Below, one piece after another: positions 24,642 through 37,124 of a stretch of 37,124 nucleotides of DNA. Every line of letters starts with the position of its first letter. Positions within the stretch are counted from its first letter, which is position 1. The notes under the pieces are model-generated. The model was not told where the DNA came from and did no database searches. It saw nothing but the letters and a program-made list of their open reading frames with translations. Where the stretch lies: the NCBI RefSeq assembly GCF_003334385.1, contig NZ_QOWN01000044.1, one strand, 5' to 3'. This DNA is from Escherichia coli (GTDB taxonomy: Bacteria; Pseudomonadota; Gammaproteobacteria; Enterobacterales; Enterobacteriaceae). The position numbers and the translations under genes were made by a program.

Positions 24642-26537
24642 TTACCAGCCACCACCGCCTCCGCCACCCGCGCCGCCGCCAGCACCACCACCGGAATAAC
24701 TTCGCCCCAACAAACTGGTATTGGCCCCGCAACTTAGGTGCGTCTGTAATGAGAATAAAACGCCGTTACGGGCAATCTCTGGAGCGCGAATCGCCGAAGA
24801 AAGCGAAGGGGCAATGCGTAACGCCCATTCCCTCCCCAAATTTGCCGATATAGCCCAACCTAGCAACGCGTAATCCAGTTTCCGTGTTTCCCCTTTCCGC
24901 CGACGTCCACTGTGTGTTGCTGCCTCTTTACGCGCAAGATAGTTAACGATAGCTTCACCGTGGGCATAACGTTGCTGTCCAGTTTGGGTAAACTTTGGCA
25001 GAAAAATATACCCCATGCCAGTGAGATAACCGGTCAGGCAAACAGCGGTAAAATAACCCGCTGGCATATACCAGTAAAAGAATACATCTCCGACATTGAT
25101 GTAGAGAGAATAGAAGGCCACGCCTGAACAAATCAGTGGTAAAAACAAAGTGATGATTACACGATTAACGCAAGGCTTGTCATCATCGCGGGCAAACAAA
25201 AGCTCAAGGGAACAAAATAAAAAAGGAATAATCCAGCAGATCATAATAAACATATCGCCCACCAGACTCATTCCTGCCCAGCCTACAGGACTCAAGTTAC
25301 CGTAAAGAATGACCGCCAATATTGCCAGTCCACCCCATTGCAAAAAAGTATCAGACCGGTAAAACGAAGACTTTTTACGCGGCAGATAAAATTTCTGCAT
25401 CCGTAAAAATGCCCTGCGTAAGACTCTGTTGCGTCTCCCCGTAAGAACGACCTTATCGCCTTTACGAAATAACGCTTCCAGTAATAACTGCTCTGCGGGC
25501 AGTAATACCGCATTATTTCTGGTCGCGCCTTCATTAACACGAATCAGGATTTGCTGGTTCTTGTCAGACTGATCTTCCAGATGAATTTTTCCTTTCACAA
25601 TCAGATTTACGATATCGGCACAAAAACCTTTATCGTCGTAAACTAGCTTCGCATCGAGACGTAACATGCCGGGCGTGTAATCTGGCGGAATGACATCGGT
25701 TTCAATCACATCTACCGGCGTAAATTGCGGCCTGCGCTTCCAGAGATATAACCATCCACAAACCAGGAACAGACACGGAAACCAAATTAACAACGATGAC
25801 GTGGAGGGTAAAAGAAGATGGCTGAAAATATTCGTCGTTTGCGGAGCCGAGGCATTGCTAAGTAAAGCGTGAGGCCAGCGGTAGAGGACCGTGAAATCTT
25901 CACGATAAAACGGATCGCGGGATTCAATTCTTCCGTCCTCAAGGATGCGGCCATTACGATATGTGTCGCCCTCTTCTCCGGTAAAGAGATCGATTTCGCT
26001 AAATGGATTACCCGCAATATTAGAGAACTGGAGAGAAAAACGGGTCTTATAAATTTCAAACGGCCAGTGGTTACCGGTCACGTTCCAGATTAGCAGATCA
26101 GAATCCCCCTCACGCAGGAAAGCATTTTTAACCTGATAATGAATTTGATAATGATAGTCGCCTTGAGGCAAGAAACGTTGTTTATCGCCCACGACAATAC
26201 TCATTAACCCGATATGCCAGTCAAGATGCCAGGGTTCAGGAATACCATCACGGGTGACGCCAACAATATGATAGTTCAGCAGTGCAGCGTCCCCATCAGG
26301 CTGCATCCATAGTCGTGGTAAATCACGATAAAAGCCGTGCTTAATCTGCTGATTTCGCGCCTGAAAATGAATATTTTCTTTGATGTCGAGCACCCCATCT
26401 GGTTGCAGAGTGGCTTCAACATCAAAGAGCGAGATCCCTTCTTCATAAGAAGGGATCTCCGTGTTTTCTGCATAACTTAGAGATGATACAAACAGCCCTG
26501 CTATCAACAGCAAAATGCAGCGAAACTTCCCTGCCAT
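24642..26537 (-). CDS. yciQ: DUF2207-family membrane protein YciQ
   Basis: 631 aa; N-terminal signal/transmembrane segment, several central transmembrane helices, and a Gly-rich C-terminal tail. Confidence 0.88.
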   Translation of the reverse strand: MAGKFRCILLLIAGLFVSSLSYAENTEIPSYEEGISLFDVEATLQPDGVLDIKENIHFQARNQQIKHGFYRDLPRLWMQPDGDAALLNYHIVGVTRDGIPEPWHLDWHIGLMSIVVGDKQRFLPQGDYHYQIHYQVKNAFLREGDSDLLIWNVTGNHWPFEIYKTRFSLQFSNIAGNPFSEIDLFTGEEGDTYRNGRILEDGRIESRDPFYREDFTVLYRWPHALLSNASAPQTTNIFSHLLLPSTSSLLIWFPCLFLVCGWLYLWKRRPQFTPVDVIETDVIPPDYTPGMLRLDAKLVYDDKGFCADIVNLIVKGKIHLEDQSDKNQQILIRVNEGATRNNAVLLPAEQLLLEALFRKGDKVVLTGRRNRVLRRAFLRMQKFYLPRKKSSFYRSDTFLQWGGLAILAVILYGNLSPVGWAGMSLVGDMFIMICWIIPFLFCSLELLFARDDDKPCVNRVIITLFLPLICSGVAFYSLYINVGDVFFYWYMPAGYFTAVCLTGYLTGMGYIFLPKFTQTGQQRYAHGEAIVNYLARKEAATHSGRRRKGETRKLDYALLGWAISANLGREWALRIAPSLSSAIRAPEIARNGVLFSLQTHLSCGANTSLLGRSYSGGGAGGGAGGGGGGGW

Positions 26538-26564: not shown

Positions 26565-27185
26565 TTATAAGAAAGGCTTCACATCACCTACGCCTTCACG
26601 CACCACGACCGGCGTATCATCGGTAAGATCAATAACCGTTGTCGGTTTCTGCCCGAGATAGCCGCCGTGAATAATCAAATCTACCTGTTTTTCCAGACGA
26701 TCTTTAATTTCTTCCGGGTCCGATTCGGTAAATTCGCTGCCTGGCAGCATTAGCGAAGTGGAAAGCATCGGTTCGCCCAATGCTTCAAGTAACGCCTGAG
26801 CGATAGGGTTAGAAGGCACACGCATACCGATGGTTTTGCGTTTTTCCTGCAACAGACGGCGTGGCACTTCCTTCGTCCCCTTCAGGATGAAGGTATAGTT
26901 GCCCGGCGTGTTGTTTTTCATTAAACGAAACGCAACGTTATCAACAAATGAATAGGTCGAGAGTTCAGAAAGATCGCGACACATCAGGGTAAAGTTGTGA
27001 CCGTCCGGCAGCTGGCGAATACGACAAATACGCTCCATCGCGTTTTTATCTTCAATTTTACAGCCGAGCGCATAGCCGGAATCAGTTGGATAAACAATCA
27101 CCCCGCCTTTACGCACGATCTCCACCGCCTGGTTGATCAGACGTTGCTGTGGGTTATCAGGATGAATATAAAAAAACTGGCTCAT
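26565..27185 (-). CDS. yciO: Sua5/YrdC-family protein YciO
   Basis: ORF track gives 26565..27221. I place the start at the ATG at 27185 (MSQFFYIHPDNPQQ...), giving 206 aa. The start overlaps the trpH stop. Confidence 0.9.
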   Translation of the reverse strand: MSQFFYIHPDNPQQRLINQAVEIVRKGGVIVYPTDSGYALGCKIEDKNAMERICRIRQLPDGHNFTLMCRDLSELSTYSFVDNVAFRLMKNNTPGNYTFILKGTKEVPRRLLQEKRKTIGMRVPSNPIAQALLEALGEPMLSTSLMLPGSEFTESDPEEIKDRLEKQVDLIIHGGYLGQKPTTVIDLTDDTPVVVREGVGDVKPFL

Positions 27186-28063
27186 AATTCCCTCTCTGTG
27201 GTGTTCTGCGGCTGTTCCCATAGCTGCCAGACGCCTTCAACGCCTGCGGGCAGCCAGAGTTTACGACCCAGTTCGATCCACGGGCATGGCTGATGAAAAT
27301 CAGATCCTTGTGATGCCCATAAATGATGCTGACGCGCAAGGGCCGCCAGCTGGGTACGTTCATTGGGCGATTGCTGGCACTGCGCGACTTCCATCGCGTC
27401 ACCGTGGTGTTCGGCAAAATGCGCAACCAATCTTTTCAGCCATTTAGCACTAAGATTGTACCGCCCAGGATGAGCTAGCACCGCCTTACCGCCAGAATGA
27501 TGAATGACATCAATAGCTTGTTCTATTGTACACCACTGTGGCGGAACGTATCCGGTTTTCCCGCGCGCCAGATACTTTTTAAAGACATCCGCCATTGAAC
27601 TGGCTTTGCCGCACTCAACAAGGAAACGCGCAAAATGACCGCGCGTCACTGCGCCGCCCTGCGCCAGTCGTTGTGCGCCTTCCAGCGCCCCAGGTATTTG
27701 CGCTTTTTCAAGTCTTTCGGCAATCAGCTGCGCCCGCTGATTGCGCCGTTCTGTCTGCTGCGCGAGGAACTCACACATTAGCGGATGAGTAATATCAATA
27801 TTCAGCCCGACAATATGAATTTCATGATTTTCCCAGACCGTGGAAATTTCCACGCCGGGAATAAGATTCAACGCCAGTCCCGAACGTGAAATTTCCTCTC
27901 TTGCTGGCGCGATTGCAGCTGTGGTGTCATGGTCGGTGATCGCCAGGGTGCCGACGCGCATCTCGACTGCACGGTGCACCAATGCTTCTGGCGTCAGGCA
28001 GCCATCGGAAGCTGTGGTATGGCTGTGCAGGTCGTAAATCACTGCATAATTCGTGTCGCTCAA
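27182..28063 (-). CDS. trpH: PHP-domain 5'-3' exoribonuclease (RNase AM) TrpH/YciV
   Basis: 293 aa; PHP phosphoesterase motifs (DLHSHTTASDG...HP). Divergent from the trp operon. Confidence 0.92.
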   Translation of the reverse strand: MSDTNYAVIYDLHSHTTASDGCLTPEALVHRAVEMRVGTLAITDHDTTAAIAPAREEISRSGLALNLIPGVEISTVWENHEIHIVGLNIDITHPLMCEFLAQQTERRNQRAQLIAERLEKAQIPGALEGAQRLAQGGAVTRGHFARFLVECGKASSMADVFKKYLARGKTGYVPPQWCTIEQAIDVIHHSGGKAVLAHPGRYNLSAKWLKRLVAHFAEHHGDAMEVAQCQQSPNERTQLAALARQHHLWASQGSDFHQPCPWIELGRKLWLPAGVEGVWQLWEQPQNTTEREL

Positions 28064-28138
28064 GGCGCACTCCCGTTCTGGATAATGTTTTTTGCGCCGA
28101 CATCATAACGGTTCTGGCAAATATTCTGAAATGAGCTG

Positions 28139-28176
28139 TTGACAATTAATCATCAAACTAGTTAACTAGTACGCAA
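28139..28176 (+). promoter_or_regulatory. trp promoter with overlapping TrpR operator
   Basis: -35 TTGACA at 28139-28144, 17-bp spacer, -10 TTAACT at 28162-28167, start near A28175. Operator palindrome ACTAGTTAACTAGT spans the -10. Matches the classical trp promoter except for one base (see findings). Confidence 0.92.
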
Positions 28177-28200
28177 GTTCACGTAAAAAGGGTATCGACA

Positions 28201-28245
28201 ATGAAAGCAATTTTCGTACTGAAAGGTTGGTGGCGCACTTCCTGA
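28201..28245 (+). CDS. trpL: trp operon leader peptide
   Basis: 14-codon [17 protein letters not shown] with tandem Trp codons at 28228-28233; classical attenuation leader. Confidence 0.95.
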
Positions 28246-28287
28246 AACGGGCAGTGTATTCACCATGCGTAAAGCAATCAGATACCC

Positions 28288-28315
28288 AGCCCGCCTAATG
28301 AGCGGGCTTTTTTTT
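28288..28315 (+). terminator. trp attenuator (3:4 terminator hairpin plus U-tract)
   Basis: AGCCCGCC-taat-GAGCGGGCT followed by TTTTTTTT, upstream of trpE. Confidence 0.93.
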
Positions 28316-28336
28316 GAACAAAATTAGAGAATAACA

Positions 28337-29899
28337 ATGCAAACACAAAAACCGACTCTCGAACTGCTAACCTGCGAAGGCGCTTATCGCGACAATCCCA
28401 CCGCGCTTTTTCACCAGTTGTGTGGGGATCGTCCGGCAACGCTGCTGCTGGAATCCGCAGATATCGACAGCAAAGATGATTTAAAAAGCCTGCTGCTGGT
28501 AGACAGTGCGCTGCGCATTACAGCTTTAGGTGACACTGTCACAATCCAGGCACTTTCCGGCAACGGCGAAGCCCTGCTGGCACTACTGGATAACGCCCTG
28601 CCTGCGGGTGTGGAAAGTGAACAATCACCAAACTGCCGTGTGCTGCGCTTCCCCCCTGTCAGTCCACTGCTGGATGAAGACGCCCGCTTATGCTCCCTTT
28701 CGGTTTTTGACGCTTTCCGTTTATTGCAGAATCTGTTGAATGTACCGAAGGAAGAACGAGAAGCCATGTTCTTCGGCGGCCTGTTCTCTTATGACCTTGT
28801 GGCGGGATTTGAAGATTTACCGCAACTGTCAGCGGAAAATAACTGCCCTGATTTCTGTTTTTATCTCGCTGAAACGCTGATGGTGATTGACCATCAGAAA
28901 AAAAGCACCCGTATTCAGGCCAGCCTGTTTGCTCCGAATGAAGAAGAAAAACAACGTCTCACTGCTCGCCTGAACGAACTACGTCAGCAACTGACCGAAG
29001 CCGCGCCGCCGCTGCCAGTGGTTTCCGTGCCGCATATGCGTTGTGAATGTAATCAGAGCGATGAAGAGTTCGGTGGCGTAGTGCGTTTGTTGCAAAAAGC
29101 GATTCGCGCTGGAGAAATTTTCCAGGTGGTGCCATCTCGCCGTTTCTCTCTGCCCTGCCCGTCACCGCTGGCGGCCTATTACGTGCTGAAAAAGAGTAAT
29201 CCCAGCCCGTACATGTTTTTTATGCAGGATAATGATTTCACCCTATTTGGCGCGTCGCCGGAAAGCTCGCTCAAGTATGATGCCACCAGCCGCCAGATTG
29301 AGATCTACCCGATTGCCGGAACACGCCCACGCGGTCGTCGCGCCGATGGTTCACTGGACAGAGATCTCGACAGCCGTATTGAACTGGAAATGCGTACCGA
29401 TCATAAAGAGCTGTCTGAACATCTGATGCTGGTTGATCTCGCCCGTAATGATCTGGCACGCATTTGCACCCCCGGCAGCCGCTACGTCGCCGATCTCACC
29501 AAAGTTGACCGTTATTCCTATGTGATGCACCTCGTCTCTCGCGTAGTCGGCGAACTGCGTCACGATCTTGACGCCCTGCACGCTTATCGCGCCTGTATGA
29601 ATATGGGGACGTTAAGCGGTGCGCCGAAAGTACGCGCTATGCAGTTAATTGCCGAGGCGGAAGGTCGTCGCCGCGGCAGCTACGGCGGCGCGGTAGGTTA
29701 TTTCACCGCGCATGGCGATCTCGACACCTGCATTGTGATCCGCTCGGCGCTGGTGGAAAACGGTATCGCCACCGTGCAAGCGGGTGCTGGTGTAGTCCTT
29801 GATTCTGTTCCGCAGTCGGAAGCCGACGAAACCCGTAACAAAGCCCGCGCTGTACTGCGCGCTATTGCCACCGCGCATCATGCACAGGAGACTTTCTGA
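28337..29899 (+). CDS. trpE: Anthranilate synthase component I
   Basis: 520 aa; chorismate-binding enzyme fold. Stop overlaps the trpD start (TGATG). Confidence 0.97.
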
Positions 29900-31494
29900 T
29901 GGCTGACATTCTGCTGCTCGATAATATCGACTCTTTTACGTACAACCTGGCAGATCAGTTGCGCAGCAATGGGCATAACGTGGTGATTTACCGCAACCAT
30001 ATTCCGGCGCAAACCTTAATTGAACGCCTGGCGACCATGAGCAATCCGGTGCTGATGCTTTCTCCTGGCCCCGGTGTGCCGAGCGAAGCCGGTTGTATGC
30101 CGGAACTCCTCACCCGCTTGCGTGGCAAGCTGCCCATTATTGGCATTTGCCTCGGACATCAGGCGATTGTCGAAGCTTACGGGGGCTATGTCGGTCAGGC
30201 GGGCGAAATTCTCCACGGTAAAGCCTCCAGCATTGAACATGACGGTCAGGCGATGTTTGCCGGATTAACAAACCCGCTGCCGGTGGCGCGTTATCACTCG
30301 CTGGTTGGCAGTAACATTCCGGCCGGTTTAACCATCAACGCCCATTTTAATGGCATGGTGATGGCAGTACGTCACGATGCGGATCGCGTTTGTGGATTCC
30401 AGTTCCATCCGGAATCCATTCTCACCACCCAGGGCGCTCGCCTGCTGGAACAAACGCTGGCCTGGGCGCAGCAGAAACTAGAGCCAGCCAACACGCTGCA
30501 ACCGATTCTGGAAAAACTGTATCAGGCGCAGACGCTTAGCCAACAAGAAAGCCACCAGCTGTTTTCAGCGGTGGTGCGTGGCGAGCTGAAGCCGGAACAA
30601 CTGGCGGCGGCGCTGGTGAGCATGAAAATTCGCGGTGAGCACCCGAACGAGATCGCCGGGGCAGCAACCGCGCTACTGGAAAACGCAGCGCCGTTCCCGC
30701 GCCCGGATTATCTGTTTGCTGATATCGTCGGTACTGGCGGTGACGGCAGCAACAGTATCAATATTTCTACCGCCAGTGCGTTTGTCGCCGCGGCCTGTGG
30801 GCTGAAAGTGGCGAAACACGGCAACCGTAGCGTCTCCAGTAAATCTGGTTCGTCCGATCTGCTGGCGGCGTTCGGTATTAATCTTGATATGAACGCCGAT
30901 AAATCGCGCCAGGCGCTGGATGAGTTAGGTGTATGTTTCCTCTTTGCGCCGAAGTATCACACCGGATTCCGCCACGCGATGCCGGTTCGCCAGCAACTGA
31001 AAACCCGCACCCTGTTCAATGTGCTGGGGCCATTGATTAACCCGGCGCATCCGCCGCTGGCGTTAATTGGTGTTTATAGTCCGGAACTGGTGCTGCCGAT
31101 TGCCGAAACCTTGCGCGTGCTGGGGTATCAACGCGCGGCGGTGGTGCACAGCGGCGGGATGGATGAAGTTTCATTACACGCGCCGACAATCGTTGCCGAA
31201 CTGCATGACGGCGAAATTAAAAGCTATCAGCTCACCGCAGAAGACTTTGGCCTGACACCCTACCACCAGGAGCAACTGGCAGGCGGAACACCGGAAGAAA
31301 ACCGTGACATTTTAACACGTTTGTTACAAGGTAAAGGCGACGCCGCCCATGAAGCAGCCGTCGCTGCGAACGTCGCCATGTTAATGCGCCTGCATGGCCA
31401 TGAAGATCTGCAAGCCAATGCGCAAACCGTTCTTGAGGTACTGCGCAGTGGTTCCGCTTACGACAGAGTCACCGCACTGGCGGCACGAGGGTAA
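29899..31494 (+). CDS. trpD: Bifunctional anthranilate synthase component II (glutamine amidotransferase) / anthranilate phosphoribosyltransferase
   Basis: 531 aa; N-terminal class-I GATase (catalytic GICLGHQ, Cys-His) fused to the phosphoribosyltransferase domain. Confidence 0.97.
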
Positions 31495-36624: not shown

Positions 36625-36741
36625 TTAAAAACGATATCCTGCTGAGAACATAAACACCCACGGATCGAGGCGTACGCTATCGTGTTGCTGTGCACCGCCC
36701 AGCTTATAATTGGCGGTGGTATCGATATCCATGTACCACAC
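36625..36741 (-). pseudogene. ompW: 3'-terminal fragment of outer membrane protein W gene (last ~38 codons only)
   Basis: Minus-strand frame encodes ...VWYMDIDTTANYKLGGAQQHDSVRLDPWVFMFSAGYRF-stop, matching the OmpW C-terminus as I remember it. Upstream of codon V the frame diverges (HIFYNLP instead of DWLVNMS), hits a TAA within 12 codons, and the DNA becomes AT-rich and non-coding. Confidence 0.6.
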
Positions 36742-36838
36742 TGGTAGATTATAAAAAATGTGATAAACAGCTATTTATAAAAGGAAAAACAAACTTTTAT
36801 GGTGATTTTTCATACCGTTTTTCTGTGTTTTTAACTGA

Positions 36839-37066
36839 TTGATTTTGTTAAAGTCTTTTTTTGTTTTGCAGAGGCTTATCCCCCCTTATAGTCATTCCAT
36901 AACTAACGGATATGACCATGTGGACGTGATTGTCAGAACCACCAGCAATGATGGACTCACCATTTTAAGAGTTGTAAATAAAGAATCCGCGCACGAATTT
37001 GTACAGGAAACGCTGCAGGAAGCCTGGGAAACCGCTGAACTGCTTTATCCAATAACGCGATCATAA
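36839..37066 (+). CDS. Hypothetical ORF in the non-ompW DNA beyond the truncation point
   Basis: 75-codon open frame with no in-frame ATG; candidate starts are TTG 36839 or GTG 36920, neither with a good Shine-Dalgarno. Product (...VDVIVRTTSNDGLTILRVVNKESAHEFVQETLQEAWETAELLYPITRS) is not one I recognise. May be non-coding. Confidence 0.2.
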   Translation: MILLKSFFVLQRLIPPYSHSITNGYDHVDVIVRTTSNDGLTILRVVNKESAHEFVQETLQEAWETAELLYPITRS

Positions 37067-37124
37067 TCACGGCAATAACATATTTTTTATGACATTATCC
37101 GTCATGTATGACATAACAACTATC

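Follow-up and report, generated by a model that had tools for sequence, protein, structure and literature searches.

A rare single-base allele at an outer guanine of the TrpR operator, scattered over several Escherichia coli lineages

The trp promoter/operator in the stretch of Escherichia coli DNA analysed here (37,124 nt of contig NZ_QOWN01000044.1, below called the window) carries A in place of the K-12 G at position 28155. Among complete E. coli genomes we found the same transition at the tips of several unrelated lineages, recurring without spread. The reading that we favour on balance is that of a real but ordinary polymorphism, in which A would be a near-neutral or mildly deleterious weakening of the operator that is kept rare by purifying selection. 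The system itself is already known, being the textbook trp operator in a version with one changed base.

The variant lies where the TrpR operator overlaps the sigma-70 trp promoter, the canonical promoter of trpLEDCBA in E. coli. On the plus strand, a -35 hexamer TTGACA (28139–28144) is followed, after a 17-nt spacer, by a -10 hexamer TTAACT (28162–28167), both recognised from the sequence. Lying over the -10 is a near-palindromic operator at 28154–28173, to which no strand is assigned; its two halves, CaAACTAGTT and AACTAGTACG, meet at a dyad between 28163 and 28164, and its limits were drawn from the sequence, from per-position conservation and from the GNACT half-site (PMC9413887). Both CTAG cores, 8 bp apart at 28158–28161 and 28166–28169, are intact, and AACTAGTTAACTAGTA is found at 28156–28171. 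Transcription presumably starts at 28175 on the plus strand, the first A of AAGTTCACG, a placement that we take from established knowledge of the K-12 trp leader and that puts the trpL ATG at +27. On this numbering the variant base (plus strand, by alignment with K-12 MG1655) is at -20, which corresponds to operator position -9.

The remainder of the locus is as expected for the trp operon. The trpL leader peptide (28201–28245, plus strand; mapped to the window from the annotation of relatives and by alignment) is the same as in K-12, and its tandem Trp codons are followed by the attenuator: the Trp leader/attenuator RNA (Rfam RF00513; 28222–28315, plus strand) scores 93.1 bits, above its gathering score of 41, and the terminator hairpin occupies 28288–28308 on the same strand, with a T run behind it. 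The operon’s first structural gene, trpE (28337–29899, plus strand), and the next one, trpD (29899–31494, plus strand), lie in the window downstream of the promoter, and the full trp operon is annotated in near-identical relatives; the repressor gene trpR is located outside the window. On the other side, upstream and divergent, is rnm (trpH/yciV; 27182–28063, minus strand). The minus strand also has a promoter-like site at 28130–28102, clear of the variant base.

When the window was aligned directly with K-12 MG1655, the sole difference within 28080–28339, a segment of 260 bp that covers promoter, operator, leader and attenuator, was at 28155, where K-12 has G and the window A. The variant string ATCATCAAACTAG occurs once in the window, at 28149–28161, and the K-12 form ATCATCGAACTAG is absent from it. 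Apart from turning the GAACT half-site into AAACT, the G-to-A change turns the TaqI site TCGA (K-12 equivalent of 28153–28156, -22 to -19) into TCAA; this is the site reportedly used by de Boer et al. in 1983 in building the tac promoter. The initial annotation had already given this variant string and had assigned K-12 a G within a TaqI site, and MG1655 indeed has G and TCGA at -22 to -19. Its coordinate for the change, 28157, is two bases off, that base being A in both strains. It had further placed the change towards the outside of the left (promoter-distal) operator half-site, inside the -35/-10 spacer, with the CTAG cores unchanged, and the sequence and the K-12 alignment agree on each of these points.

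The leftmost GNACT half-site, GAACT in K-12, begins with position 28155. The published consensus for a TrpR half-site is GNACT, and the repressor residues that contact DNA include Arg69 (PMC9413887, citing Jaseja 2002; Youderian and Arvidson 1994). In the window the left half-site (28155–28159) reads AAACT and not GAACT, while the right one, GTACT on the bottom strand (28168–28172), is intact. One of the two outer guanines, at -9 and +9, is thus lost, which makes the window’s operator a variant allele and not a different element. In the co-crystal of Otwinowski et al. from 1988, Arg69 is said to hydrogen-bond this operator guanine, and substitutions at operator position 9 are said to have had little in vivo effect on repression in the 1987 work of Bass et al., in which the position reportedly proved not critical.

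When GTDB species representatives were scanned with the pattern TTGACA-N11-AACTAGTTAACTAGTA, in which the -35 hexamer is invariant by design, we obtained 63 sites in 62 species, 57 of them just upstream of trpE and four with too little downstream DNA to tell. In these Enterobacterales operators the base equivalent to 28155 is G at 59 of 63 sites and A at the other four (Budvicia, Leminorella and one MAG twice); when only the 57 sites just upstream of trpE are considered, the -20 equivalent is G in 55. The neighbouring base, -21, is C in 41, T in 20 and A in 2 of the 63 operators, and most other spacer bases vary freely, while the symmetric partner +9 (28172) is C in every one of the 63. The outer location given in the initial annotation stands, but the base is not an arbitrary flanking one, being the G of the GNACT consensus, G in nearly all of the operators scanned and close to invariant in E. 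coli. At the same time, the spacer base -24 (28151) is C in 58 of the 63 operators and yet T in roughly 280 E. coli genomes (UTI89 and similar), which shows that cross-species conservation alone is no proof of TrpR contact. The scan returned no representative of E. coli, E. fergusonii or the main Salmonella enterica, though the K-12 sequence fits the pattern; either core variants are present in these representatives or the scan missed sites.

Within E. coli, allele frequencies were obtained by megablast against complete E. coli genomes with 55-nt queries centred on the base; the exact 28-mer seed always contains the central base, so that only the queried allele matches. Of 5,426 genomes, 14 (0.26%) carry A at 28155 and 5,345 carry G, K-12 included, and the allele-specific query blocks found neither C nor T in any of the 5,426. 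About 67 genomes stayed untyped, four because they lack the region and the rest because flanking variants on both sides break every 28-mer. Two apparent G-to-T matches at -20 were really an 8-bp operator duplication that retains the G. The initial annotation had proposed comparison with K-12 and with other E. coli as its check, and had called the difference a regulatory-site polymorphism; with G in K-12 and A present as a rare allele, the polymorphism is genuine. The symmetric +9 position is changed in a single genome of the 5,426 (C-to-T, confirmed), and the ±10 positions are often polymorphic, with the -21 C-to-T in about 300 genomes, HS among them, and a G-to-A at 28173 in about 20.

The carriers fall into several kinds. 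STEC2018-607, Rb-50, PS2Canimalfeces12 and the pair 2022H047/2022H048 have an otherwise K-12-like promoter, and eight O157:H7-type genomes also have the T-to-C at -28 of their lineage. The urine isolate 23AR0998 carries in addition a T-to-C at the first base of the -10 (equivalent to 28162), which turns TTAACT into CTAACT and is likely to be promoter-down; at least one further genome has this -10 change together with G at -20. The sources of the A carriers are mixed (human stool, urine, pig, cattle hide), with no host or source in common.

G is the base at the equivalent position in E. albertii, E. whittamii and Escherichia sp. E1V33, and also in the window’s nearest relatives SCU-104, SW071611 and EC2, which are 7, 15 and 18 substitutions away in 35 kb (EC2 with a 3-nt indel besides). 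Because the other Escherichia species and the nearest relatives all have G, A is the derived allele. Only four positions in the 35 kb (4933, 9724, 28155 and 37077) set the window apart from all three of these relatives, and at each of them the relatives all have G and the window A or T. That the A is private against otherwise near-identical relatives is also what an artefact of sequencing, assembly or laboratory passage would look like, but we regard such an artefact as very improbable: the same allele is found in 14 independently finished genomes, and three other private G:C-to-A:T or T:A SNPs in 35 kb are as expected of a real, slightly diverged strain.

Two observations concern other parts of these genomes. 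In the nearest relatives a truncated ompW precedes genes for an S6-family autotransporter peptidase and a YadA-like adhesin as well as prophage tail genes, and the end of the window (about 36625–37124) probably lies in the same insertion. In STEC2018-607 and its relatives, yciQ (window 24642–26537) is missing between rluB and yciO.

Taken over 2,981 nt, the A carriers and the window make up seven haplotypes that are 24–96 SNPs apart, while the window’s G-allele relatives are just 1–2 SNPs from it over the same 2,981 nt. None of the nearest relatives of STEC2018-607, at a distance of about 3 SNPs per 12 kb, is one of the A carriers, and the O157:H7 genomes 7409 (G) and 4276 (A) differ at 2 of 3,033 positions, one of which is 28155. 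Rb-50 and 2022H047/048 each have a divergent haplotype of their own, with nearest relatives (98.5% and 99.2% identity) that have G. At least three origins of the allele are recent events at the tips, namely in the window, in STEC2018-607 and in an O157:H7 subclade of eight genomes, eight also being the size of the largest A clade. Around the site every haplotype, of either allele, has the same sequence over at least 270 bp, so that short-tract recombination from a rare A donor is indistinguishable from repeated mutation. As to how the change might arise, we found no support for a mutational hotspot, reasoning from the sequence, in which the site is not a Dcm site (CCWGG), and templated correction of a quasi-palindrome is out, since G to A lowers the symmetry in both registers (with the dyad at 28163/28164 and with the dyad within the CTAG at 28158–28161).

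Such recurrence could point to adaptive, repeatedly selected tuning, with A favoured in some niche or culture through higher basal trp expression or changed promoter strength. The 15 carriers, window included, spread over seven haplotype backgrounds with three tip events; the asymmetry against the equivalent transition at the symmetric +9 is 14 to 1; one of only four private SNPs of the window in 35 kb hits 28155; and by a rough estimate fewer than about one neutral G-to-A event per site would be expected at this sample size. We nevertheless consider selected tuning improbable. The allele has never reached appreciable frequency or depth, its carriers come from no shared host or source, and the whole region has repeated variants on mixed backgrounds, such as the C-to-A at 28174 (-1), shared by O111:H8 and O157:H7, so that the recurrence may be a property of the region or a result of short-tract recombination. 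A recurrent distribution that is confined to tips, without spread, fits weak purifying selection on an operator-weakening or nearly neutral allele, as in the explanation that we favour.

The variation of the surrounding promoter was surveyed in the same genomes with 55 variants, namely all transitions apart from the two already known to be common, together with the two possible transversions at -20. Single-base variants other than the -20 A within 28128–28182 were found in 877 of the 5,426 genomes. Their individual frequencies are rough, having been estimated from an evenly spaced sample of 60 rows of the matches; the figure given above for the T at -24 comes from this sample, as do about 160 genomes (O26/O111) for a G-to-A at -37 and about 115 of 5,426, or some 2%, for a T-to-C at -16 (28159), which turns the first CTAG into CCAG and was confirmed in Z0117EC0116. 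The second CTAG becomes CTGG through an A-to-G at -7 (28168) throughout the O145:H28 lineage (RM9872 and at least 27 other genomes); TrpR binding is generally taken to depend critically on this operator position. O121:H19 (RM8352) has an A-to-G at 28171 (-4, operator +8; AGTAC to AGTGC) together with a G-to-C at 28133 (-42). In strain 203740 a T-to-A at 28163 (-12) turns TTAACT into TAAACT, which is nearer to the TATAAT consensus and alters the operator centre; the sampling suggests that the TAAACT allele is present in tens of genomes. The changes at -7, -4, -12 and -1 were likewise confirmed in the genome sequences. Three apparent alleles proved to be separator artefacts: ‘28161 G>A’ in O121, where the fetched sequence has 28133 G>C and 28171 A>G; ‘28135 G>A’, where the real change is 28163 T>A; and ‘28146 T>C’, where it is 28174 C>A.

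Besides these substitutions, Z1323HEC0477 and Br_190_kylling carry an 8-bp duplication of TTAACTAG inside the operator, giving three CTAG units (GAACTAGTTAACTAGTTAACTAGTACG), which would offer TrpR a possible additional half-site and create another -10-like hexamer. In the leader, a Gly9-to-Ala change in trpL (GGT to GCT, 28226, WP_001386774.1), directly before the two regulatory Trp codons, is seen in HS, O145 and O121. The trp promoter/operator is far from invariant in nature, and in number an allele of 14 genomes is unremarkable; the -20 A stands out by turning up on many scattered backgrounds and by hitting a conserved position. One could see in it a case of parallel selected tuning of the trp operator, along with the other contact-base changes, the core CTAG changes and the half-site duplication. 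We give this wider proposal little credence; were it true, each operator change would set a lineage-specific set point for tryptophan biosynthesis.

The -20 A may also be effectively neutral, with no measurable effect on repression or promoter strength, its rarity simply reflecting the youth of every occurrence. In favour of this are the undamaged CTAG cores and promoter hexamers and the natural A in some Enterobacterales; the 877 genomes with other single-base variants include changes in the operator core, and operator position 9 is, as noted above, reportedly non-critical in vivo. A crude promoter scan gave the same result for G and A, though the scanner demands an A at position 2 of the -10, which TTAACT lacks, and so is blind to the trp promoter. 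Full neutrality is less easily squared with a base that stays G in 59 of 63 operators while the adjoining -21 varies freely, with the lack of C or T there in 5,426 genomes and of change at +9 in all but one of them, and with seven backgrounds on which the largest clade is nonetheless of eight genomes. We hold it to be a possible reading, though a doubtful one.

The operator-weakening explanation, which we prefer, would work as follows. Loss of the guanine at -9 would remove one contact between TrpR and a base in the promoter-distal half-site, that is, in the GNACT of one TrpR monomer. Occupancy of the left site by the holorepressor would then be modestly lowered, and the operon would be slightly leakier when tryptophan is plentiful. 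Promoter strength and attenuation should be unaffected: hexamers and spacing, both CTAG cores, leader peptide and attenuator are all as in K-12. A small effect of the A allele on TrpR repression, as the initial annotation had supposed, would be plausible. Against operator weakening stand the natural occurrence of A in Budvicia, Leminorella and one MAG, the reportedly slight in vivo effect of substitutions at operator position 9, and the conservation of -24, which shows that -20 is not alone in being conserved across species. Moreover, apparently harsher operator changes are commoner (CCAG in about 115 genomes, CTGG throughout O145:H28), which suggests that selection on the operator may be weak.

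Compared with E. coli K-12 trpP/trpO, which is controlled by TrpR repression and trpL attenuation, the window has the same hexamers, spacer length, CTAG cores, leader, attenuator and trpEDCBA, and differs by the G to A at -20, with its AAACT half-site and its lost TaqI site. The classical operator-constitutive (Oc) mutations of the trp operon, reportedly described by Bennett and Yanofsky in 1978, are said to cluster in the central symmetric region and to be strongly constitutive. Like them, the window’s change is a single substitution in the promoter-overlapping TrpR operator, but it lies at the outer edge, where a weak effect would be expected, and we would not class it as Oc. A second precedent comes from Shigella dysenteriae 16, in which Miozzari and Yanofsky in 1978 are said to have found a natural promoter-down allele that makes the trp promoter about ten-fold weaker. 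That allele is likewise a natural point variant in a trp promoter/operator of the E. coli group, whereas in the window the hexamers and their spacing are unchanged. Further parallels are the other single-base alleles of the same operator described above, namely -21 C>T (HS), -16 CCAG, -7 CTGG (O145:H28), -4 A>G (O121) and -12 TAAACT; these are mostly clade-wide and far commoner, while the -20 A is rarer and scattered at the tips of several lineages. Our literature search, which had little reach into the classic papers, found no paper describing the -20 A allele.

By itself, the -20 A allele leaves the understanding of the trp system unchanged. As a natural allele at a contact base, it is a handy test case for the share that the outer guanine (position 9, contacted by Arg69) has in repression in vivo. 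The rough catalogue of natural E. coli trp promoter/operator alleles, some of them at supposedly critical core positions, may outweigh the allele itself in usefulness, and it matters wherever the K-12 regulatory sequence is assumed to be the norm for the species or the trp promoter is used to drive expression systems.
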